The translations under genes were made by a program, and so were the position numbers. A stretch of 64,000 nt of DNA from Caldilineales bacterium (GTDB lineage Bacteria > Chloroflexota > Anaerolineae > J102): NCBI GenBank assembly GCA_037443945.1, contig JBBINH010000015.1, positions 4,475 to 68,474 of the forward strand, given 5' to 3'. The notes below the pieces were generated by a model. That model was not told where the DNA came from. It saw nothing but the letters and a program-made list of their open reading frames with translations, and did no database searches. How positions within the stretch are numbered: the stretch's first letter is position 1; each line of letters begins with the position of its first letter. This document shows positions 54,292 to 64,000 of the stretch, piece after piece.

Positions 54292-55350
54292 ATGAGAGCG
54301 CTCCCTGCCCTTTATCCTCTGCGTTTGGAACGTCGGCTTGACCATCGCTTGTGGGGTGGCTCGCGGCTGGCCGCCTGGTTGCATCTGCCCCCGCCGTGGC
54401 CGAACGATCTGGCCGAGTCCTGGCAGGTGTATGCCGAGAATCGGGTTCTGAACGGGCCTCTGGCCGGTCACACGCTGGCCGAGCTCTGCCACGAGTATGG
54501 CCCTGCCCTGCTCGGCACCCTCAGCGTGCAACGCTACGGCGACGATTTTCCTCTCCTGGCCAAATTCATCGATGCCAACGACCGGCTTTCCATCCAGGTC
54601 CATCCCGACGACGAGTACGCGCATACGATGGAAGCGCATACCGGCTTTCACGGCAAGACCGAGGCCTGGTACATTATCGCCGCCGAGCCGGGGGCCAGTG
54701 TGGTGTATGGCCTGCGTCGGGCTACCGACCCGACTGTGTTCCGTGAAGCGGTTGCGAAGGAGCGTCTGGAGGAGCTGCTCAACATCGTGCCCGTCCGGGC
54801 CGGCGATGTCATTTTCGTCCCGGCCGGTACTCTCCACGCCATCAACGCCGGCATCCTCCTCTTCGAGATCCAGCAGAAATCGGATCTCACCTATCGCGTT
54901 TACGACTACGGTCGTCGGGATGGGCAGGGTCGTCTCCGCGAACTTCACCTCGATAAAGCCATGGCCGTCCTCGATTTCGAAGCGGCCGGTCCGGCCCATG
55001 TGTCGCCGCTGCCGCTGGCGCCGGGGCATGAATTGCTGGTGGCCTGTCCTTATTTTGCCCTGGAGCGCCTACGTGGAGGGAACCATCAACTGGAGGTAGG
55101 GCCGACCAGTTTTGAGATCCATACCCTCATTGCCGGACAGGCCATCGTCGCCGGCGAAGTCCTAACGCCGGGCGAGTCCTTGCTTCTTCCGGCGCAATGG
55201 GGAACGTATTCCCTCGACCTTTCCGCCGATGCCGTTTTGCTACGCGTTTACGTGCCCGATCTAAGCGGTCGGGTATGGCAACATCTACAAGCCCTTGGCT
55301 ATCCTGAGTCCCGTTTGATGGCTACAGTGCGCTTCCATCCCAGAAATTGA
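54292..55350 (+). CDS. manA: Type I phosphomannose isomerase (cupin)
   Basis: 'LWGGSRLAAW', 'QVHPDDEYAH' and 'KTEAWYII' are PMI class I zinc-ligand motifs. Confidence 0.8.
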   Translation: MRALPALYPLRLERRLDHRLWGGSRLAAWLHLPPPWPNDLAESWQVYAENRVLNGPLAGHTLAELCHEYGPALLGTLSVQRYGDDFPLLAKFIDANDRLSIQVHPDDEYAHTMEAHTGFHGKTEAWYIIAAEPGASVVYGLRRATDPTVFREAVAKERLEELLNIVPVRAGDVIFVPAGTLHAINAGILLFEIQQKSDLTYRVYDYGRRDGQGRLRELHLDKAMAVLDFEAAGPAHVSPLPLAPGHELLVACPYFALERLRGGNHQLEVGPTSFEIHTLIAGQAIVAGEVLTPGESLLLPAQWGTYSLDLSADAVLLRVYVPDLSGRVWQHLQALGYPESRLMATVRFHPRN

Positions 55351-55970
55351 TGTTTGCTCCTTTACCCCCTGGTATGGAGGAGCTCGCATCCCCTATGGCC
55401 GAGAAGCTACGCATTTTCGTCAGCGCTACTGCCGATCTGGAGGCCGAACGCGGGATCATTGCCCGCACGCTGGCCGACCTGCCCCTGCGGGTAGGGGCGG
55501 AGATCCGTCGCTGCCCGCCGGAGGGGGTCTCTTACGAAACGCTTTTCGAGCTGATCAGCAATGTGGACCGGGTCTACTTTCTGCTGGGGCAGGACATTAC
55601 GGCCCCGGCCGGAGCCGAATGGGACCTGGCCATTGAACTGGAACGGCCCATTCTGGCCTTACGGGCGGCCCGACGCCTGACCCCCGCCGCCCAGCAGTTC
55701 CTACGCCTGGCCTTTCATCAGGTGACCCCGACCGCATGGAAAATCTTCCACTCCGATGCGGAACTGGCCCGCTTCGTCACCCTCGATCTGATCGATATCT
55801 TCCTCCATCCCGCCAATCGCTACGGTCTCTCGGTCGAAGAAGTCGTCGAGCTTGAACAATACCGCCGCCGCCTGTTGACACCGACGACCGTAACAACCGC
55901 CGCAGGCGGGCCGACCGACGCGGCCATCATCCTGGAACAACGCCCTCCCTCAGAGGACGGCCAGGAGTGA
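55350..55970 (+). CDS. DUF4062-like (TIR/nucleoside-deoxyribosyltransferase-like fold) protein
   Basis: 'KLRIFVSATADLEAERGIIARTLADL...VDRVYFLLG' resembles the DUF4062 N-terminal consensus. Start overlaps the manA stop (TGATG). An alternative start is 55395. Confidence 0.45.
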   Translation: MFAPLPPGMEELASPMAEKLRIFVSATADLEAERGIIARTLADLPLRVGAEIRRCPPEGVSYETLFELISNVDRVYFLLGQDITAPAGAEWDLAIELERPILALRAARRLTPAAQQFLRLAFHQVTPTAWKIFHSDAELARFVTLDLIDIFLHPANRYGLSVEEVVELEQYRRRLLTPTTVTTAAGGPTDAAIILEQRPPSEDGQE

Positions 55971-55994: not shown

Positions 55995-58199
55995 ATGACC
56001 CGTCTCAACCCCGACATCCCCAATCCCGAACTCACTCAGGCCCTCGATCAGGCGGCCGACGCCATGCGGGACGCCGGCCACAGCGTGCTCACGCCCGAAT
56101 GGCTTCTGCTTATCCTGGCCCGTAGCGAGAGCACGGATGCCGGCCGTTTGCTGCGCCATCTGGCCCAGGAACGCGGCTTTTCCCTGACCGCCTTTGTCGA
56201 GACGGCCGCGCAGATGGCCCGTCTGCGCCAAGGCCGCGATGGCAAGCTCCGTTTCCTCACGGCCGGCGGTGTCGAGATCGCCCTTTCCGATGAGCTGATC
56301 ATCGTCCTCGACGAAGGCCGCGGCATCGCCCGCGCCCTGGATGAAGTTCAGGTCGGCACGCATCATGTCCTGGCGGCCATGGCGGAGCGAGGCGTGAGCA
56401 CCAGCGCCTTCTTGCAGAGTCACGGCATCACTCCAGAAGTCATGACCGACCGCCTTATGGCGGCGGCGGCAGTCCGCAAGCAAACGACCGGTGACCTGGT
56501 GGGGCAGGCCCAGGCCGGCGAGCTGCGGCCGGTGTATTATCGGCAGACCCTGCTGCGCGATCTGAGCACCCTGCTGGCCCTGGTCGGCCCGCGGCATGTG
56601 CTTCTGGTCGGTCCGCCGGGGGTGGGCAAGCGTGCGCTGGTGCAGGCGCTGGCCTTGCTCATGGCCGAGGGTAAAGGCCCCACCGGCCTGAAAGCCCTCA
56701 TCACCGTCAGTGAGTCGGCCCTGCTGACCGATGCGGCCCAGGCCCTGGAGGCCGCCTTGCGCCAGGCCCGTGGGGGCATTCTGTTCCTGCCGAACATCCA
56801 ACGCTTTTGCGGAGGGCCGCTCGATGCCGTGTTTCCCAAGGCCGAGCGCGCCCTGCAAAAAGCCTTTCTGGCCCGCGACCCGGTCCTCATCGGCAGTCTC
56901 AGCCCTCAGGACTATGAGCACTTCATCGCCAAAACGCCGGCCATCCGCGAAAACAGCCATCGCCTGGATGTGCCCGAACCGACCCCGGAGGAGACGGCGG
57001 CCATCCTCGCCGTCCATCGGCCCCATCTCGAAGCCGAATACGGGCTGAGCATTGACCCTGACGCCATGCCCACGGTAGCCCGGCTGGCCCGTCGCTATCT
57101 CACGGCCACGCCCCTACCGGCGTCGGCTTTGCAATTGCTCCATCGCGCCTGCGCGCTGGTCGTGGCCAGTCAGCAAGCGCAAAATCCGTTCCGACCGCCC
57201 CAGGCCGGTGACGGTCAGCGGGTCGACGGCGAGGACGTGGCTCTGGCCCTCAGCCTGATGACCGGTATCCCCGTGACGCGACTGGGCGTGGATGAACGTG
57301 CCCGCTATGCCACCATGGTCGCAGCCATCCGTCGGCGCATTGTCGGTCAGGACGAGGCCGTGCTGGCCGTGACACGGGCCATCAAGACGGCACGGGTGGG
57401 CTTGAAGGACCCGAAACGGCCGATCGGCTCCTTCCTTTTCCTGGGGCCTACCGGGGTCGGGAAGACCGAGCTGGCGAAGGCGCTGGCCGAGTTCATGTTC
57501 GGTGACGAGTCGGCGCTGTTTGCCCTCGACATGAGCGAGTATCAGCAGGAGCACAGCGTGGCCCGCTTGATCGGCGCGCCGCCGGGCTATGTGGGCTACG
57601 AGAGCGGCGGGCAACTCACGGACCATGTGCGACGACAGCCCTATACCGTTATCCTGTTCGACGAGGTGGAGAAAGCCCATCCGCGCGTGCTCGATGTCCT
57701 CCTCCAGGTCATGGAGGAAGGCCGGCTGACCGACGGCCGGGGACGCACCGCTTTCTTCCACGAAGCCGTCCTGATCCTGACCAGCAATCTCGGGTCGGAG
57801 TATCTGACCGAACCCGTCGTTGGCGAACGGCAACGGGAATTGGTGATGGCGGCCGTGCGGAGCTTCTTTCGGCCTGAATTCCTCAACCGCCTGGATGAAA
57901 TCGTCCTTTTCCGTGCGCTTTCCCCCGACGAATTGGCCCGCATCCTCGATTTGCTCCTGGAGAAGGAAGCCCAGCTGTTGGCCCTCCGCCAACTCCGCCT
58001 GGAAGTGGACCAAGCGGCTCGGACCTGGCTGCTGGCGCAGAATACGCAGCCCGAATGGGGTGCACGGCCTCTGCGCCGCATCCTGCAGAAGCACCTGCGC
58101 GAACCCCTGGCCGATTACCTGCTGGCCCACGATCCGGCGCCGGGCACCGTGGTGCGGATGCATCTGCAGAACGGGCATCCGGTCTTCGACATGGCCTGA
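55995..58199 (+). CDS. Clp/Hsp100-family AAA+ ATPase with Clp-N repeats (ClpC-like, degenerate first AAA domain)
   Basis: Clp_N repeats are present. D1 has 'GPPGVGKRA' and no DE Walker B. D2 is intact ('GPTGVGKTELAKALA', 'ILFDEVEKAHP', sensor 'TSNLGS'). Confidence 0.85.
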   Translation: MTRLNPDIPNPELTQALDQAADAMRDAGHSVLTPEWLLLILARSESTDAGRLLRHLAQERGFSLTAFVETAAQMARLRQGRDGKLRFLTAGGVEIALSDELIIVLDEGRGIARALDEVQVGTHHVLAAMAERGVSTSAFLQSHGITPEVMTDRLMAAAAVRKQTTGDLVGQAQAGELRPVYYRQTLLRDLSTLLALVGPRHVLLVGPPGVGKRALVQALALLMAEGKGPTGLKALITVSESALLTDAAQALEAALRQARGGILFLPNIQRFCGGPLDAVFPKAERALQKAFLARDPVLIGSLSPQDYEHFIAKTPAIRENSHRLDVPEPTPEETAAILAVHRPHLEAEYGLSIDPDAMPTVARLARRYLTATPLPASALQLLHRACALVVASQQAQNPFRPPQAGDGQRVDGEDVALALSLMTGIPVTRLGVDERARYATMVAAIRRRIVGQDEAVLAVTRAIKTARVGLKDPKRPIGSFLFLGPTGVGKTELAKALAEFMFGDESALFALDMSEYQQEHSVARLIGAPPGYVGYESGGQLTDHVRRQPYTVILFDEVEKAHPRVLDVLLQVMEEGRLTDGRGRTAFFHEAVLILTSNLGSEYLTEPVVGERQRELVMAAVRSFFRPEFLNRLDEIVLFRALSPDELARILDLLLEKEAQLLALRQLRLEVDQAARTWLLAQNTQPEWGARPLRRILQKHLREPLADYLLAHDPAPGTVVRMHLQNGHPVFDMA

Positions 58200-58202
58200 G
58201 GC

Positions 58203-59120
58203 TCAGGCTGCCCGCCGCCGTGAAGGAACCTCTTTCACCAAGGCCACCTCATCCATCGTCAGCGGTGGGTCGAGCTCCTCCTCGGCATTCGTATCGGCAT
58301 TGTCGGCACGTTTAGGGACCTTTGGCGACCTGTTGACATCCGAGTTCAAGCCAAGCTCGATCTCGGATTGGCCGTTGGGCGTGAGGCGGGTATTGATCTC
58401 CAAAGCGCCTGAGGGGGTGGGAATTTGCAGGGGCGGTGGCTGCAGACCTTCGACGACGGCCATCAGGTGGGTCTGCAGATGGGGCGGGTAATCGCGGATA
58501 AGCCGCAGGATTTGCTCCCATTTGCCGGTCAGACGCTGTATATGCACCCGGTCGGCGCGGGCGCGGTCAAACGCTTCGATCAGGGTCGGCGGTAGCGAAT
58601 CGAGGACCATCCAGCAGGGTTCCGCTTCATTGAGCACATAACCGAAGCGGGCCAGAACCCTCCCCAGATGACGGCGGATGTTGAGCATGAGGGCCTCGTT
58701 CTGCCGGGTCATCGTGAGGATATGGGACAACTGGGTGTAGAAATCGGCATCGGCGGGCACCGGATGGCGTCGCTCGTATTCCCTGACCATCTGGATGACC
58801 AGATGCTGAACGGCATCGTCCAGTTTGTCCTTCCGATCCTGCTCATTCCAGGAGGCCAGCTCGGCCAGACGGGCGAAATCCTGCCCTGCTGTGCGACGCA
58901 GGTCAAGGCTGGCATGAAAAGACAACCGCAGGGTGACAGGCACCCCACTTCCGGCAAAGGTTCGGATCAACACAATGAGCCTTGTCTGCCGCACATCGAG
59001 GATGGCGTGACATTCGTCCACGTGCGGCCATAGCCAGATCAGTCCCGGACCGGCGATGCGATGGAAGCGGCCCAGACGATAGATAACCGCTTCGTATCCT
59101 TCTTCCACTTTCAAGAACAT
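58203..59120 (-). CDS. SPFH/band-7 domain protein (soluble, no TM anchor)
   Basis: 'VEEGYEAVIYRLGRFHRIAGPGLIWLWPHVDECHAILDVRQTRL' fits the SPFH N-terminal consensus. Confidence 0.65.
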   Translation of the reverse strand: MFLKVEEGYEAVIYRLGRFHRIAGPGLIWLWPHVDECHAILDVRQTRLIVLIRTFAGSGVPVTLRLSFHASLDLRRTAGQDFARLAELASWNEQDRKDKLDDAVQHLVIQMVREYERRHPVPADADFYTQLSHILTMTRQNEALMLNIRRHLGRVLARFGYVLNEAEPCWMVLDSLPPTLIEAFDRARADRVHIQRLTGKWEQILRLIRDYPPHLQTHLMAVVEGLQPPPLQIPTPSGALEINTRLTPNGQSEIELGLNSDVNRSPKVPKRADNADTNAEEELDPPLTMDEVALVKEVPSRRRAA

Positions 59121-59124
59121 AGTG

Positions 59125-60120
59125 CTACAAATCCGAAAATTTTAGATAGTTTTCGAACAAAAGACTAAAAATCCGATCATTAGGCTCGAGTAAAAGACCG
59201 CGTCGACGTAGCAGAAAGAGCGCGGGGGCATCGCCGGTGCCGGGCGTTTGGCCGTGGGTCAACATCCAGAGTACCTGTTGTTCATGCCGATGGAGGGAGC
59301 GGAAGATGCGCTCACAGGCTTCGCGAATGGCCGGCTGAGCCAGGAGATCGCCGGTGGGGTTCCGAGAGGAAGGGGGATCGATCAGGTATTGCTCATGGAC
59401 CAACCTGAGCAACCTGGCATGCCCGCCGGCCAATTGGTAGATGAAACGCAGCGTGGAATTCGCCAGTGGCTGCGCCGCCTGAGCGTTGAGAAATTGCAAC
59501 ATGTGCCAGGCATCGGCCCGGTTATAAAGGCGCAGAACGAAGATGTGGGAGACAAACAACCGGTAAAATTTGCTCTCCTCGGTGAGCCGAATCGTGCGGC
59601 CCAGGCGATGGGGCAACCGATTGACAAACAGCATAAAAGCAAGGGCATCACGGTTTTCGTCCCGCAGGGTGCGGAGCTGCTCCAACAAGGCCAGCGGACC
59701 GCGGCGCAGGAGTTTATCGGCATCGTCGAAAACGAGAAGAAGCCGTTGATCGGGTTGGTGGCAAAAGGCGTTGGCCAGTTGACGGGTGATGAGATTATCG
59801 CGCGCGACCGGATCGCTGCTCAGGGGAATCACGTTACTCGGCGATAAGACCTTCTCCGTCTCACGACGCAGCAGGTGCCAAAAGTCCACCTGACCTCCGT
59901 TCCAATCATTGCAATCCACAAGCACCGTTTTCAGGACGATGGCCGTGCCATCGGGCGCAGACACACGACCATAATGTCGCATCAGACAATTGACCAGATT
60001 CGATTTACCGCTACCGGGAATACCGATAAAAACACAGGAAAGACCCCGCCGCGCATAATCGGTGATCAAGGCCAATTCATCCCGGCGATAATGGGGGGAA
60101 AAACGGGGAAAGGAGGACAT
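59125..60120 (-). CDS. P-loop NTPase (AAA/STAND-like)
   Basis: Walker A 'GIPGSGKSNL' and Walker B 'LLLVFDDADKL'. 331 aa. Lies 4 nt upstream of the SPFH gene. Confidence 0.7.
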   Translation of the reverse strand: MSSFPRFSPHYRRDELALITDYARRGLSCVFIGIPGSGKSNLVNCLMRHYGRVSAPDGTAIVLKTVLVDCNDWNGGQVDFWHLLRRETEKVLSPSNVIPLSSDPVARDNLITRQLANAFCHQPDQRLLLVFDDADKLLRRGPLALLEQLRTLRDENRDALAFMLFVNRLPHRLGRTIRLTEESKFYRLFVSHIFVLRLYNRADAWHMLQFLNAQAAQPLANSTLRFIYQLAGGHARLLRLVHEQYLIDPPSSRNPTGDLLAQPAIREACERIFRSLHRHEQQVLWMLTHGQTPGTGDAPALFLLRRRGLLLEPNDRIFSLLFENYLKFSDL

Positions 60121-60190
60121 AGGAAGTCCTCATCGTATCCGAGGGCTAAAAAACCGGCGTCAAAAAGTATAGACCGACTTTTTTCTGCCA

Positions 60191-62770
60191 TCAAGTTGCA
60201 GCGATACCGATCACGCGCTGCAAGCAGATATCGATCAAAGGCGTTGCCTCTGCCAACGCGTTGGGGAGATCGAGCACGGCCTGCAGTTTGCCCGAAGCAA
60301 AGGGTTCCACCTTCAACGGCAGGTCACGCAATCGGTCGGGGGAGATGGCCAGGGCCAACCGCATCTTGTCAGGGCGATCCACAGGCCGAAAGAACAAGGC
60401 CACAAGGCCGCCATCGGCGGCATGAACCTCACATCGTCGGCTCTGAATGTGGACATCCAGCGCCGGCCATCGTCGACGCACGTACTCGGCCATGGTCCAC
60501 AGCGGTTCGGCGGGTGTTTCATCCCTCTGCCGGGGGTCGGCGCCGAACAACAGGGCCGGTAGAGGTTCGGCGCCGTCCAGATAGGCTTCCAGCTCGTGCA
60601 ATAACCGCAAGGCCTCACCGTAGAGCAGAAGCGTATGTTCGAAGAATCGCACGCGTGCGGCCAGGAGCAAGAGACGAACGCTTGTCGCCAACCATAGGCG
60701 TGGCTTCCAGTATTCCGTATCGCGTAATCGACGGGCCTCCTGTTCGATTTGGCTAAAAATGGCCTGTTGGAAATATCGCGTTAGAGGACGCAAGAAAAGA
60801 TTCTTTTCTTCCACAGTTACTACATACGTATCACCACGCCGATGATGGCGAATCTTATCCAAGCTTATATAACCTGCCATTTCCGGATTACGAATATAAC
60901 GATATAAACATGCATCTTCTAATAGTATAGCATAATCATCGATATAATCGCCATTTTGGTTCATATGATCTAAATCAATAAAAAATACCTTTATTTTAGA
61001 ATTATCTGTTCTAGAGTCATCGATCATGATATTACGTGTATGACAGTCTCCGTGGACTAATCCTATTGTTGACGGCCGCAAAATACGAACATGTTTCTGC
61101 AAAACGCGCAAATAATGATTAAGAGAAGAATAACAAAAATCGTTATACTCTAATTTCTGTAATTCTACACGAAATTGTGATTTATTACAAATAAACATTA
61201 AAGCAGTATTTTCTACAGGACTTAAGTACAATCGAGATAAATGATCACCAGGTAGGTTATCACGACTCTTGCGAAAACTTGTACAATTATGCAATTTTCT
61301 AAGAGATTCTCCTAAAGCGACGATAATGTTTTCGAGTCTATTGCGATGACTCTGTGCCAAAGCAATGCGATCGATGTTCGCTAAAAAGGTCTCAAGGGTC
61401 TTTTTGTCCTTCAGATCCTCCATGATGAGATAACCCTGTCCCTCCTCGGTGGTCGAAAGCGCGATCGGAGGGTGGCCGTGGGTGGCAAACAAAGGGCGGA
61501 TCTCCGCCGGTAAGCGCCTGTATTCCTCTACGGCCCGACGGAGATCGGCGTAGCGTCCTCTCTTGACGATGATCTGCTGCGGTCGCGATTCGTAGACCAT
61601 GCCGGGATGCTCTTGACTGTAGCTCGGCAGGCGCACGAGAAACTCGACCTCAAAGACCTTTTCCGAACGCACCCCTCCACTGATGGCCTCAACCTGAAGG
61701 ATTTGGATCTGCAGTTGGCGGAGTAGGACCTCCTTCAATTCCTCCTTGAGTTTATGCTGAAGCGTATCGTAGGCGCGGCGATGGCTATCCTGATGCATCC
61801 GGAATAAGCGGCCGTAAATGGCCCGGTTGAGTTCAGAACCATGACGCGTCGCCAACAGACGCAAAACAAGGCAATGGAAGACGAAATCTTGGGTCGCTAA
61901 AGTACCGGATGCGCTGTACCCGCGATGCAGATGCATAATCGCTTCGGCAACCGTAGCCTCGGCATCGGGTTGGCCTTGAAAATGCTGGCAGAGCTGAATG
62001 GCGCAGTACAGAGGCTCGGAACCAAAGGCTGTCGTCTTTTGCACGACGGCAATAAGGCGATCCCGTACCTTTTGCAACGTATGCTCATCCTCGAGATACC
62101 CGTAGCGCTTCAAGATGTCGAAGGCATAGCTCAGCTCCTGCCAGGAGTGGAAAGGATCGGGCTTCTGGGAATGGTATTCCCAATCCTGCCAGGCCTTCCG
62201 GATGGCTTGCAGGGCGCGTTCGCAACGTTGACGTATCCCGCGAGACAGCGAGGTGGACTGGGCATGCCGATTGAGCCAGTAGAGGGTATCGAGATAGATG
62301 AGGGTCGCCAGATAGGGGCGCGGCAAATCAAGAAGGTCTTGACGCCATCGGCGGTCGAGGGTGTGGAAGTCCTCCCATAAATGTTCATCCTTGAAATGAT
62401 TGGTCCAGGCCAGGGTTTTGAAGCGGCTGGGGTTGAAACGAGGGGAGTTCTCCCACTCGAAATCACCCCGATCGGGGCTTTCGGAAACATTGACCAGCCA
62501 GGCCACGCCGTTTTGCAGAGGTTCCTGCAAGGGCGATGAAGGTCCCAACAGATGAAAAGCCTCCACAGCGTGACAGACATTGCGCAGCATTTTTTGGGGC
62601 TCGCGATCAACCCAGGCTCCACTTTCCGGATCCTGAGTGATGCAGAGGAAATCGATCACATACATGGCCAAGCTGGCATCTTGCTCCAGGGTAGAAGCGC
62701 CGCTTGCCTGGAAGGGATACATCTCCCAAAAGGCATGAAAATTGGGAGGGTAAAAGGTGGAAGTGCTCAT
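60191..62770 (-). CDS. Large multidomain protein with APH/protein-kinase-like catalytic core
   Basis: 859-aa continuous ORF. 'LVHGDCHTRNIMIDD' (HGDxxxxN catalytic loop) and 'FFIDLDHM' (DFG-equivalent IDLD). The N-terminal ~400 aa and C-terminal ~180 aa are unassigned. Confidence 0.7.
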   Translation of the reverse strand: MSTSTFYPPNFHAFWEMYPFQASGASTLEQDASLAMYVIDFLCITQDPESGAWVDREPQKMLRNVCHAVEAFHLLGPSSPLQEPLQNGVAWLVNVSESPDRGDFEWENSPRFNPSRFKTLAWTNHFKDEHLWEDFHTLDRRWRQDLLDLPRPYLATLIYLDTLYWLNRHAQSTSLSRGIRQRCERALQAIRKAWQDWEYHSQKPDPFHSWQELSYAFDILKRYGYLEDEHTLQKVRDRLIAVVQKTTAFGSEPLYCAIQLCQHFQGQPDAEATVAEAIMHLHRGYSASGTLATQDFVFHCLVLRLLATRHGSELNRAIYGRLFRMHQDSHRRAYDTLQHKLKEELKEVLLRQLQIQILQVEAISGGVRSEKVFEVEFLVRLPSYSQEHPGMVYESRPQQIIVKRGRYADLRRAVEEYRRLPAEIRPLFATHGHPPIALSTTEEGQGYLIMEDLKDKKTLETFLANIDRIALAQSHRNRLENIIVALGESLRKLHNCTSFRKSRDNLPGDHLSRLYLSPVENTALMFICNKSQFRVELQKLEYNDFCYSSLNHYLRVLQKHVRILRPSTIGLVHGDCHTRNIMIDDSRTDNSKIKVFFIDLDHMNQNGDYIDDYAILLEDACLYRYIRNPEMAGYISLDKIRHHRRGDTYVVTVEEKNLFLRPLTRYFQQAIFSQIEQEARRLRDTEYWKPRLWLATSVRLLLLAARVRFFEHTLLLYGEALRLLHELEAYLDGAEPLPALLFGADPRQRDETPAEPLWTMAEYVRRRWPALDVHIQSRRCEVHAADGGLVALFFRPVDRPDKMRLALAISPDRLRDLPLKVEPFASGKLQAVLDLPNALAEATPLIDICLQRVIGIAAT

Positions 62771-63266
62771 AAGAGAAACCCTGAATCACTGAAGGCAAAA
62801 AACTTGATTGTCTTAAGTAATATAACCAAGCAAAGCCGATTCTTGGGTCCTATGTCTCGTCAACAGTCGCACGATCTTGAAGAACGACTCTTCCCAACCC
62901 ACCCTACCGGACTACCTGCACCTCTGGGCAGCATGGGCGGCCTTCCGAAGATAGCCGTTTTCTTCCGGCCATGCTCCCCGGTGGGCCCATGGTAAACGAG
63001 GAAAGCAACTCTAGCCGTTCAGGCGCTTCTGCCGCTCTCTACCCCCTCCGCACCGGGCACGCTGGGGAAAGCACCGGTTACGAATCGGCGGCAGCCGGCC
63101 GGTGCTGTGCGGACACAACAGCCCATCCTGGTCTGTTGTGATGCCGACCCTTGCGCACTAAACCCCAAAGTCCACGGCAACGCCCATCAGGACGGCATGA
63201 CCACCCGCTGCCTCTCCCTACGGCATCAGCCCTTATAACGAATGTCTCGCAACGGCGGCGTGGTTT

Positions 63267-63650
63267 TCAGGTTGCCGAGGGCACTTGTGAGGAGTGATGA
63301 TGCACGATCGGTGCAGGCTTCGAAAGGTCAATCACGTAACTGAATCGCGCTTTGAGGCGCTGCTCTTCGCCCTCGACCAGAAAGCGCCATTCGTAAACGC
63401 CGCTCAAAATGAACGTGTTGTCGGACAGTTCCTGAAGGAGGAGGGTTTGCGGATCAAAAACAATATGCAAGCCCTGGCGCCGACCAAGCGACTCGAAATA
63501 GCCTTTGAGTTCGCCGGGCGTGTTCAAGGGTCGATCGGCAAAGGTGGGGATCAGTACGGCCTGGGGATCGTATAGCCCCAGCAAGGTTTGCAGGTCGCCC
63601 TGGTTGACGGCCTGTATCCATTGCGCAAACATCGTGCGTGCCTGTTCCAT
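63267..63650 (-). CDS. SnoaL/NTF2-like (DUF4440-like) small protein
   Basis: Start 'MEQARTMFAQWIQAVNQGDLQTLLGLYDPQAVL' is a typical NTF2-like cone-fold opening. About 128 aa. Confidence 0.45.
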   Translation of the reverse strand: MEQARTMFAQWIQAVNQGDLQTLLGLYDPQAVLIPTFADRPLNTPGELKGYFESLGRRQGLHIVFDPQTLLLQELSDNTFILSGVYEWRFLVEGEEQRLKARFSYVIDLSKPAPIVHHHSSQVPSAT

Positions 63651-63767
63651 GAGCAATCTCTCGCAACCGAAGAAGCATGACAAGCGGGTAGAGTATAGCA
63701 TAAGCCAACAATCGTAGGGGGTTTTGACCGGTATGGAAAAAAGGGACTACGATAGGGCTGCGATGAA

Positions 63768-64000
63768 ATCTGGGCTATGCTTTTGCCCGGGAGGTTGCTC
63801 GTTTCTCCGGATTGACTCCGGCTGCGTTGGACGCCCTCCCGGCGCAGGCGGGTACTGTCTGGTATGGCTTGCACCCCTGGATTGAAAGCGGCTTCAAAGA
63901 CCTCAAGCGAGGCGGCTGGCAATGGCACCAGACGCGCATTACCAACCCCCGACGCACCGAACGCTTCTGGCTTGTCTTGGCTGTGGCTACCCTCTGGGTC
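63768..64000 (+). mobile_element. IS4/IS701-like DDE transposase C-terminal fragment (relic), running off the window end
   Basis: The frame opens directly after a stop with no start codon. 'WYGLHPWIESGFKDLKRGGWQWHQTRITNPRRTERFWLVLAVATLW' carries the Y-x2-(R->H)-x3-E-x6-K block typical of IS4-family transposase C-termini. Confidence 0.5.

Follow-up and report, generated by a model that had tools for sequence, protein, structure and literature searches.

A three-gene cluster encoding a kinase-fold protein, a small STAND/ORC-like P-loop ATPase and an SPFH/Band_7 protein was characterized in a Caldilineales bacterium (GCA_037443945.1). Comparison of related sequences indicates that the trio is a real, recurrent gene module of filamentous Chloroflexota, and it resembles a signalling device more than a system of anti-phage defence. 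The window, i.e., the whole stretch of DNA that was analysed, comprises 64,000 nt of contig JBBINH010000015.1 (positions 4,475 to 68,474 of the forward strand).

Gene organization

The open reading frames and Pfam matches bear out the three minus-strand genes, spacers and domain content that an initial annotation had proposed (Table 1). The kinase and ATPase genes are separated by 70 nt and the ATPase and SPFH genes by 4 nt. The GC content is 0.54 over the trio and 0.64 in the remaining window. A block spanning positions 57961-62851 is shared with the loci L069/L070 at 82% identity (blastn). The last 81 nt of this block, upstream of the kinase gene, are probably promoter-proximal sequence or a 5' UTR. 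They contain no called sigma-70-like site and no Rfam match; no RNA element or riboswitch was found within 55-64 kb at E<=1, and the promoter and terminator scans yielded no more than the shuffled expectation.

Table 1. Features of the trio and its flank (window coordinates)
Feature	Position	Strand	Basis or remark
Kinase-fold protein, 859 aa ("type A" kinase of the triad)	60191..62770	-	ORF, Pfam APH, AF2 model
N-terminal (α/α)6 barrel domain, residues 10-333	61772..62743	-	Proposed input/sensor
APH/choline-kinase-like phosphotransferase core, residues 354-735	60566..61711	-	
Small α/β C-terminal domain, residues 756-854	60209..60505	-	Secondary structure in AF2 model
STAND/ORC-like P-loop ATPase, 331 aa	59125..60120	-	AAA_22, AAA_16, invariant Walker residues
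SPFH/Band_7 protein, 305 aa, without N-terminal membrane anchor	58203..59120	-	Band_7 profile
Region 5' of the kinase gene, 81 nt	62771..62851	-	Conserved with 75%-identity relative; end of shared block
DDE transposase C-terminal fragment (IS relic)	63767..64000	+	DDE_Tnp_1 match; extends past the window edge

The IS relic noted earlier beside the trio is supported by a DDE_Tnp_1 match that lies just under the cutoff (E=2.5e-4) and covers profile positions 148-199 of 200. It is a flank of the trio and not a member of the module. L070 has a copy of it upstream of the kinase gene, 84% identical and interrupted by an in-frame stop. The SPFH gene is bordered by the STAND-like ATPase gene and by a convergent Clp-like gene. 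Pfam confirmed the Clp-like ATPase. The TIR-like label of its supposed companion, a 207-aa open reading frame, finds no support, as this frame has no match in Pfam, PADLOC, NCBIfam or PDB. The Clp-like gene was rejected as a fourth component: an intact copy adjoins the trio only in the window, the closest relative has a remnant of 105 aa, and the other loci lack the gene.

Conservation of the trio

For non-redundant ATPase relatives at about 34% identity or more, all 33 assessable loci had an SPFH gene next to the ATPase gene, and 26 of 26 had a neighbouring kinase-fold gene (10 of the barrel type and 16 of the TCAD9 type). In the tier of 27-30% identity, the SPFH gene was adjacent in 8 of 11 loci and a PKL kinase in 6 of 7. 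A kinase-based search recovered the trio in 12 non-redundant loci. The genes occur in the orders kinase-ATPase-SPFH and ATPase-SPFH-kinase, or with the kinase gene divergent from the ATPase and SPFH genes (S<-N|K->), and the flanks differ at each locus. Because the same three families co-occur in dozens of independent loci, the association is far beyond chance, and the proposal that the trio is conserved as a unit holds across many genomes with varied flanks and gene orders.

The annotated genome loci all belong to Chloroflexota metagenome-assembled genomes, except for one bin labelled "Aminicenantes". The mobility signature expected from unrelated genomes was not seen, as no other phylum is represented among these loci. 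The trio has a patchy distribution, and paralogues occur. Its GC content is below that of the flanks in five of the 12 type-A loci (the window, L069, L001, L035 and L002); together with the adjacent IS relic, this suggests lateral transfer.

The kinase partner takes two forms, either a barrel-kinase protein, as in the window, or a receiver-TCAD9 kinase that lies behind a GAF histidine kinase. The second form is exemplified by the Caldilineaceae loci L071-L073, which contain, in this order, genes for a histidine kinase with three GAF domains, a receiver-TCAD9 kinase, the ATPase and a Band_7 protein. Their kinases score 76-108 bits against TCAD9 (cutoff 40) and their ATPases show 36-41% identity to that of the window. 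The type-B kinases of the sister triads as a whole score 76-137 bits and thus exceed the cutoff; the HMM for this type was built from kinase-only seeds, with the receiver domain left out against drift. The ATPases of barrel-type and TCAD9-type loci interleave in a neighbour-joining tree. More distant relatives of the ATPase lack an SPFH partner and pair with giant TCAD9 proteins instead; the most distant tier adjoins EAD7-TCAD9-cyclase-AAA_16-TPR and TCAD9-Pkinase giants.

In Ktedonobacterales, orthologues of the barrel-kinase are single genes in conserved synteny with no adjacent ATPase or SPFH gene, so the kinase can work without partners, or at least without adjacent copies. A neighbouring 450-aa protein was considered as a disguised ATPase or SPFH protein and rejected, since this polytopic membrane protein resembles neither by hmmsearch or hhalign. 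Single genes in a conserved chromosomal context, which had been named beforehand as evidence against the initial proposal, therefore do occur in part, namely for the kinase in this order, and this speaks against the suggested defence island.

The kinase-fold protein

The 859-aa protein was modelled by AF2 with a pLDDT of 85.6. About 400 residues at its N-terminus had been described as unassigned; the Pfam APH match does begin only at residue 399, but the preceding region is confidently modelled as an (α/α)6 barrel of the terpene-cyclase/glycosidase type. Class II terpene cyclase activity was rejected, since residues 1-345 contain no DxDD general-acid motif on direct inspection; the protein also has no match to Pfam SQHop_cyclase or Prenyltrans. 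Column entropies show that the barrel is conserved to the same degree as the catalytic core and is not hypervariable, and the most variable part of the protein is the C-terminal domain (mean column entropy of 2.28 bits vs. about 1.8 in the kinase core). The fusion of barrel and kinase is rare (78 representatives among 1.84 billion proteins), and at its full length of about 850-900 aa the family is confined to Chloroflexota. The α and β regulatory subunits of phosphorylase kinase contain GH15-like (α/α)6 domains that regulate a kinase. That enzyme is eukaryotic, carries barrel and kinase on separate subunits and has a Hanks-type catalytic subunit; it has no sequence relationship to the trio kinase and serves as an analogy only.

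The kinase core has the bilobal PKL fold and matches Pfam APH over residues 399-619 (38.1 bits vs. a cutoff of 23.2). The residues K403, H573, G574, D575, H577, N580 and D599, which correspond to the β3 lysine, the HGDxxxxN loop and the metal-binding aspartate, are invariant in 52 sequences. With every catalytic residue invariant, the kinase is predicted to be catalytically competent. It shares the fold and all catalytic motifs with APH, choline kinase and YihE (SrkA), but differs in its length of 859 aa, its unique N-terminal barrel, its added C-terminal domain and its gene context. Identity with an antibiotic-resistance kinase or SrkA was rejected because the scores fall far beneath the NCBIfam cutoffs; with 12.3 bits for APH_3p (cutoff 205) and 12.2 bits for Mph(C) (cutoff 550), the module is not an antibiotic phosphotransferase. 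Identity with TCAD9 (PF19974) was rejected as well, at 20.6 bits against a cutoff of 40 and over the catalytic-loop region only.

In structure the kinase is closest to small-molecule kinases, and a protein substrate is therefore putative. The 859-aa protein could accordingly be a bifunctional metabolic enzyme whose barrel binds or transforms a sugar or isoprenoid and whose APH-type domain phosphorylates the same molecule. The ATPase and SPFH genes would then be accessory or loosely related, and this reading is considered improbable. A RiPP-type (lanthipeptide-like) modifying enzyme, in which a kinase and an α/α-barrel cyclase would act on a peptide, is largely refuted and retains only a very slight probability. 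The 859-aa protein has its domains in the reverse order to class III/IV lanthipeptide synthetases (lyase-kinase-LanC-like) and lacks a lyase domain. The top 60 structure matches of the barrel include none of the LanC type, and there is no LANC_like Pfam match. Furthermore, no precursor-peptide, transporter or protease gene is conserved beside the trio, and partners of the ATPase and SPFH types are foreign to RiPP clusters.

The ATPase

The window ATPase matches Pfam AAA_22 (42.7 bits vs. a cutoff of 27) and falls just short of AAA_16 (31.1 bits vs. 32.6). It is a P-loop NTPase of the AAA_16/AAA_22 type with Walker A (G33..G36-x-G38-K39-S40, GxxGxGKS) and Walker B (D132-D133) motifs that are invariant among its relatives. 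R153, R157 and G233-H234-A235 are also invariant; the last three are part of a longer conserved motif, G233-H234-A235-x-L, and about 70 aa at the C-terminus form a further conserved segment. The top PDB profile match is archaeal Orc1/Cdc6 (2qby_A, E=8e-4); sequence-only PDB searches with the ATPase and SPFH proteins returned P-loop noise at most. The window protein has no match to nSTAND1 (PF20703) at E<=0.1. Its relative in L112 comes close to the nSTAND1 cutoff (25.8 vs. 27.1 bits), and P0105 and P0106 have precomputed nSTAND1 matches. The protein ends at residue 331, with no Pfam match to C-terminal sensor repeats (TPR, WD40, LRR) or effector domains. Some relatives end in a Trans_reg_C domain (29-39 bits vs. 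a cutoff of 26.2), namely the ATPases of L006, L012 and the distant tier; the window ATPase has no such OmpR-type DNA-binding extension.

The SPFH protein

The 305-aa protein matches Pfam Band_7 with 30.5 bits (cutoff 23.6). No hydrophobic segment was found in it (maximum KD19 = 1.46) and only seven in-frame codons lie upstream of its start; it is therefore truly anchor-less, as had been proposed. Its counterpart in the type-B triad of L071, which is anchored, is 34% identical to it (E=1e-26). An N-terminal hydrophobic anchor is present in 45 of the 61 SPFH proteins of the family. The anchored form is thus taken as ancestral, which would place the original site of action at the membrane, and the window copy has lost its anchor. 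Neither an NfeD partner nor an FtsH-type operon partner was found in the flanks of the SPFH gene.

Signalling or defence

The trio was earlier suspected to belong to a conflict, defence or signalling island. An NTP-dependent biological-conflict system (anti-phage or programmed-death) of multicellular bacteria would assign the STAND-like ATPase the role of a threshold switch, the kinase that of a modifying effector or signal amplifier, and the SPFH protein that of a superstructure-forming or membrane-perturbing effector. This reading is the main rival to signalling, possible but rather unlikely. The kinase family borders TCAD9, a PKL domain named after the vWA-MoxR-VMAP ternary systems, and the effectors described for these systems (Kaur, Burroughs, Iyer and Aravind, 2020/2021) include Band7-like and aminoglycoside-kinase-like domains. 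The giant TCAD9 partners of the distant ATPases, of a kind that is typical for these systems, point the same way, as does a 1006-aa AAA_16 protein with a weak EAD1 match in the flank of L071. The low GC content in the five loci listed above, the nearby IS relic, the sharp limits of the block shared with the closest relative, the patchy distribution and the paralogues are also consistent with a conflict system.

Against this, none of the three proteins has a meaningful match in PADLOC-DB v2.0: the kinase and SPFH proteins have none, and the sole match of the ATPase, mad8 (E=0.0036), is confined to the P-loop. No relatives of the kinase or ATPase were found in viral contigs, and phage origin or association was rejected on this ground. 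The trio has no classical toxic effector (nuclease, TIR, pore-former or protease), its putative sensor domain is not hypervariable, its flanking genes mainly have housekeeping or signalling roles, and the synteny around the Ktedonobacterales orthologues is conserved. At the loci examined, no integrase or recombinase recurs as a conserved neighbour of the trio. The GAF histidine kinase-receiver input of the sister loci fits an endogenous signal better than the sensing of an invader. On the absence of viral relatives and of a conserved integrase, the ordinary flanks and the conserved sensor domain, the suggested defence flavour was not upheld; the signalling alternative is favoured by the link to GAF histidine kinases and receivers and by the DNA-binding domains on some ATPases.

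The systems of Kaur et al. resemble the trio in their occurrence in multicellular bacteria, including Chloroflexi, and in sharing TCAD9/aminoglycoside-kinase PKL domains, STAND-like NTPases, Band7-like superstructure-forming domains and receiver domains. The trio differs in lacking the MoxR-vWA pair, VMAP, GAP1 or EACC1 core and in having its SPFH component as a separate gene and not as a vWA-fused domain. Neither in the window nor at the other loci examined does a MoxR, vWA or VMAP gene adjoin the trio. An unrelated MoxR-VWA_CoxE pair is located about 4 kb from the trio of L006.

The statement that the combination is not a catalogued system agrees with the lack of a PADLOC match and with the literature searched, in which no description of the triad was found.

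Proposed mechanism

On gene neighbourhood and fold, the trio is quite possibly a signalling module that combines a sensor kinase with a STAND-like ATPase as the switch and an SPFH protein as the scaffold. The linkage of the genes, the identities of their domains, the invariant catalytic residues, the exchangeable inputs and the loss of the anchor are observed directly; for the ligand, the phosphorylation targets and the output, we infer the following. The constant core would be the small STAND/ORC-like ATPase, whose gene is tightly, and probably translationally, coupled to that of the SPFH scaffold. A PKL enzyme with an exchangeable N-terminal input domain would act with this pair. In the window the input would be the (α/α)6 barrel, whose conserved pocket may accept a defined small ligand such as a glycan, an isoprenoid or a lipid. 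The bound ligand would switch the APH-type kinase. By analogy with the action of AfsK on AfsR and with flotillin-scaffolded kinases, the targets of the kinase may be the ATPase, the SPFH protein or both. Phosphorylation would alter the ATPase, held on a multimeric SPFH ring, in its nucleotide state or its oligomerisation. In variants with an OmpR-type winged helix on the ATPase, the output would probably be transcription. The window variant would be a trimmed cytosolic form, as both the DNA-binding domain and the SPFH anchor have been lost. Since its ATPase has no DNA-binding domain or sensor repeats and its SPFH protein no anchor, the model derived from relatives may transfer only partly to it.

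A more specific version is doubtful. It would make the trio an undescribed three-component signalling system of multicellular Chloroflexota, in which an SPFH ring scaffold holds a minimal STAND-like ATPase that acts as a transcription factor in some variants, a kinase-fold enzyme with plug-in inputs controls the release or activation of this ATPase, and the barrel is a unique terpenoid or glycan sensor of a type not known elsewhere.

A close parallel to the proposed signalling module is the AfsK-AfsR pair of Streptomyces, in which the kinase is of the Ser/Thr type. AfsR combines a STAND ATPase with an OmpR-type DNA-binding domain, and its phosphorylation by AfsK alters its ATPase activity and oligomerisation (PMC10936776). 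As in AfsK-AfsR, a kinase gene is linked to the ATPase gene, and an OmpR-family winged helix occurs on the ATPases of L006, L012 and the distant tier. The trio kinase, however, has an APH/TCAD9-like and not a Hanks-type fold, and the 331-aa ATPase is minimal, lacking a TPR sensor and, in the window copy, the DNA-binding extension. In addition, the close tier has an obligatory SPFH partner, and phosphorylation is presumed for the trio. A 2009 survey of prokaryotic SPFH operons does not mention kinase or ATPase partners (PMC2636767). HflK/C-FtsH, stomatin-NfeD and flotillin-scaffolded sensor kinases resemble the trio in placing an SPFH gene beside an NTPase or signalling partner, with presumed assembly, but the partner in the trio is a STAND/ORC-like ATPase and not an FtsH-type AAA+ protease or NfeD.

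Significance

SPFH proteins occur throughout life and, to our knowledge, their bacterial clients beyond FtsH and NfeD are largely unknown. The strict pairing with a STAND-like ATPase and a kinase provides a concrete, testable client set. The exchange of barrel and receiver on a constant ATPase-SPFH core offers a clean natural experiment in modular signalling. Given the confident model and the strong conservation of the sensor-like barrel, a search for its ligand should be tractable. The trio further bears on the "conflict system" repertoire of multicellular bacteria, which is under debate, and an answer as to whether kinase/STAND/SPFH sets serve immunity or ordinary regulation would clarify how such repertoires are to be interpreted. 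If true, the three-component reading would represent a new class of SPFH clients and a new family of sensor domains.

Gene content and domain architecture of the trio

A three-gene module was identified on the minus strand, with open reading frames exactly where the initial annotation had placed them and spacers of 70 and 4 nt. The three proteins match Pfam APH (residues 399-619, 38.1 bits, cutoff 23.2), AAA_22 (42.7 bits, cutoff 27, with a sub-threshold AAA_16 match) and Band_7 (30.5 bits, cutoff 23.6), respectively, in agreement with the domains first assigned to them. Each is a member of a known superfamily, namely the APH-type PKL kinases, the STAND/ORC-like P-loop ATPases and the SPFH proteins. 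The trio region is compositionally distinct, with a GC content of 0.54 versus 0.64 in the remainder of the window. A sigma-70-like hexamer pair (TTGATG-17-TATACT) inside the kinase-ATPase spacer could be a promoter of the ATPase-SPFH pair's own; such matches are no more frequent around it than expected from shuffled sequence of the region.

The AlphaFold2 model of the kinase protein, built on 52 family members, is confident (pLDDT 85.6) and contains three domains: an N-terminal (α/α)6 barrel, the APH-type core and, at the C-terminus, a small α/β domain (residues 756-854) in which the protein varies most. The protein is a PKL kinase that is catalytically competent (catalytic residues include K403 and D575), and its N-terminal input is exchangeable. 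W91, R116, K118, D161, W197 and Y215 belong to the pocket of the barrel. A search of 1.84 billion representative proteins with the barrel profile returned only 78 matches. All full-length matches are proteins of 850-900 aa with the barrel at the N-terminus, so the barrel family exists solely in fused form with this kinase, and the fused proteins make up a rare, uncharacterised family. NCBIfam models of resistance phosphotransferases were missed by an order of magnitude, and this assignment was rejected. It is improbable that the protein is a bifunctional small-molecule enzyme to which its partners are accessory, and a role in RiPP-type modification is very hard to credit.

In the ATPase the Walker A (GxxGxGKS) and Walker B (DD) motifs are invariant, and arginines and a GHA-x-L motif are conserved as well. 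Among solved structures, profile comparison ranks archaeal Orc1/Cdc6 first (E=8e-4), and relatives of the protein nearly reach the nSTAND1 cutoff (25.8 vs 27.1 bits). The description that fits it best is a minimal ATPase of the STAND/ORC-like kind that lacks sensor repeats. Some variants carry a DNA-binding winged helix (29-39 bits, cutoff 26.2).

The SPFH domain of the third protein begins at its very start. The open frame reaches just 7 codons further upstream and the protein has no hydrophobic segment, so it is truly anchor-less. The N-terminus is strongly hydrophobic in 45 of the 61 SPFH proteins of the family, and the anchor is absent only in a clade comprising the window and the surveyed loci L069/L070/L074, L075, L001/L032 and L008. 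A separate group contains a weaker amphipathic segment of the PPLLRLLLF type. The membrane anchor is the ancestral condition and the anchor-less form is derived.

Conservation of the gene set

The kinase-based genome survey yielded 61 loci. Full-length relatives of the kinase were found only in Chloroflexota MAGs, apart from one contig of an Aminicenantes-labelled bin; one weak match in a Bathyarchaeota MAG covers the kinase domain only. The full-length family forms two groups, with and without the ATPase and Band_7 partners. The first group comprises 12 non-redundant loci, each with different flanking genes. The order is kinase-ATPase-SPFH in most of them and ATPase-SPFH-kinase in L019 and L035, whereas in L002/L003 the kinase diverges from the ATPase-SPFH pair. 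In L002/L003 the trio is accompanied by two further Band_7 genes (546 and 431 aa), with BMC shell genes adjoining, and in L025 and L027 another ATPase paralogue precedes the kinase.

The second group, from Ktedonobacterales and some Chloroflexia MAGs, has a conserved syntenic neighbourhood of aldehyde dehydrogenase, a convergent polytopic membrane protein, HhH-GPD glycosylase and a large GT. There the genes of the orthologous barrel-kinase and of this membrane protein, which has 450-480 aa and no Pfam match, always converge (L004, L005, L013-L017, L020, L024, L026, L031, L034 and L037). This protein is a possible alternative partner of the kinase.

The ATPase-based metagenome survey added 79 loci, which were counted in tiers after clustering at 90% identity. 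At about 34% identity or more to the ATPase of the window, SPFH genes were adjacent in 33/33 assessable cases and PKL kinase genes in 26/26. The corresponding counts were 8/11 and 6/7 at 27-30% identity, and 4/22 and 18/18 at 22-26%. In the closest tier the SPFH gene is directly downstream of the ATPase gene. Across the ATPase-SPFH pairs as a whole, the junction is 4 nt or overlapping in most loci. The ATPases of the most distant tier are longer, carry a C-terminal Trans_reg_C winged helix and are followed by large TCAD9 proteins. The tier counts and these architectures indicate that the deep core is an ATPase-PKL kinase dyad and that the SPFH gene, tightly coupled to it, is a third element specific to the closer tiers. 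The ATPase-TCAD9 dyads at L120, L122 and L129 lack an SPFH component, and this dyad may itself be an undescribed system. The trio is a unit: the same companions recur in both surveys, and the flanks vary.

Two kinase architectures occur in the closest tier, the barrel-containing type A (10/26) and a shorter type B (16/26), and BLASTP barely aligns them. At three Caldilineaceae loci (L071-L073), the type B kinase starts with a receiver domain, to which a genuine TCAD9 domain (76-108 bits, cutoff 40) is joined, and its gene directly follows that of a triple-GAF histidine kinase. The L071 SPFH protein and that of the window share 34% identity (E=1e-26). In L073, a second REC-TCAD9 kinase and a GAF histidine kinase are located downstream in convergent orientation. 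In a neighbour-joining tree of the ATPases, which is rough, without bootstrap support and thus indicative only, type A- and type B-linked members interleave at at least five positions and the clade of the window is monophyletic. Read most simply, the ATPase-SPFH pair stays constant, and the kinases that serve it have input domains that can be exchanged.

Surroundings and signs of rearrangement

The module in the window shows signs of rearrangement. The DNA in common with the closest relative (L069/L070, 75% identity) is a sharply bounded 4.9-kb block of 82% identity, which covers 81 nt in front of the kinase gene, the trio itself and the terminal 240 nt of the Clp-like gene that converges on it. 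Of the Clp-like gene, the relative has kept just the last ~105 codons, still joined to the trio, with SMC after them. The insertion sequence relic of the initial annotation is supported by a DDE_Tnp_1-type C-terminal fragment that scores just below the cutoff. Upstream of the kinase, L070 has a pseudogenised copy (84% identity, in-frame stop), whose orientation relative to the trio is reversed. An NTF2/SnoaL-like gene occupies the same low-GC stretch between the trio and the relic, and is absent from the DNA shared with the closest relative.

The first ring of the Clp-like protein has a Walker B segment, read by eye as GILFLPNIQ, without an acidic pair, so D1 is probably hydrolysis-dead. No Pfam, PADLOC, NCBIfam or PDB sequence match was obtained for the adjacent 207-aa product, which leaves its former label, TIR-like, unsupported. 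Its gene and the mannose-6-phosphate-isomerase-like gene upstream share 4 nt at the stop of the latter, and 24 nt separate it from the Clp-like gene, so it is probably co-transcribed with both.

Features of the window and of related loci
Feature	Sequence	Position	Strand	Remarks
207-aa ORF	window	55347-55970	+	
ClpA/B-like two-ring AAA+ protein, 734 aa	window	55995-58199	+	convergent with SPFH gene
Block shared with closest relative	window	57961-62851		
SPFH protein, 305 aa	window	58203-59120	-	
ATPase, 331 aa	window	59125-60120	-	
Candidate hexamer pair	window	60166-60194	-	
Kinase-fold protein, 859 aa	window	60191-62770	-	
NTF2/SnoaL-like ORF, 144 aa	window	63267-63701	-	CaMKII_AD/DUF4440; GC 0.55
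DDE-transposase C-terminal relic	window	63767-64000	+	E=2.5e-4; runs off window end
Pseudogenised transposase copy	L070	about 1620-1722		
Extra Band_7 genes	L002	2676-5611		
Polytopic membrane protein (example)	L005	10667-12028	-	
Second ATPase paralogue	L025	6-1148		
Second ATPase paralogue	L027	2-778		
Second REC-TCAD9 kinase with GAF histidine kinase	L073	9432-12358		
Giant TCAD9 protein	L120	1987-7404		EAD7-TCAD9-guanylate cyclase-AAA_16-TPR
Giant TCAD9 protein	L122	6458-9769		TCAD9-Pkinase
Giant TCAD9 protein	L129	5879-8308		TCAD9-AAA_16

Proposed function

A signalling role is proposed with slightly less than even confidence. A defined small ligand would bind the barrel and gate the kinase, which would phosphorylate the ATPase and/or the SPFH protein. 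Phosphorylation would alter how the ATPase oligomerises in dependence on nucleotide, or how it is retained on an SPFH ring, and transcription would be the output wherever the ATPase has a winged helix. The form in the window, without SPFH anchor and DNA-binding extension, is a trimmed cytosolic variant. AfsK-AfsR is the nearest functional precedent. AfsR is a STAND ATPase with an OmpR-type DNA-binding domain, and its phosphorylation by AfsK increases ATPase activity and oligomerisation (PMC10936776).

A conflict or abortive-infection system is the main rival and is less likely; the initial annotation had named conflict, defence and signalling as alternatives. The kinase family borders TCAD9, a PKL domain that owes its name to its occurrence with vWA-MoxR-VMAP systems, and the effectors that Kaur et al. 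listed for such conflict systems include domains resembling Band7 and aminoglycoside kinases. EAD/TCAD9/STAND giants are abundant in the distant ATPase tier, and the GC content of the trio is below that of its flanks in 5/12 type A loci. However, PADLOC gives no meaningful match for any of the three proteins, and the kinase and ATPase have no relative in 2.9 million viral contigs. The flanks are mainly housekeeping and signalling genes (tRNA synthetase, RuvABC, SMC, STAS/SpoIIE, GAF kinases), and neither an integrase nor a recombinase is a conserved neighbour of the trio in the loci examined. The barrel is conserved like the catalytic core (mean column entropy 1.90 vs about 1.8 bits), unlike arms-race sensors, and the type B input comes from two-component partners.

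The combination was rightly described as uncatalogued: it is absent from PADLOC and from two Aravind-lab papers on NTP-dependent conflict systems, and the 2009 survey of prokaryotic SPFH operons does not mention kinase or ATPase partners (PMC2636767). Among known kinds, the NTP-dependent kinase/STAND signalling systems that multicellular bacteria possess come nearest. That the module is real is solidly established; its taxonomic range is narrow and its function a proposal. With it come a concrete set of new clients for SPFH scaffolds and a new family of sensor domains.
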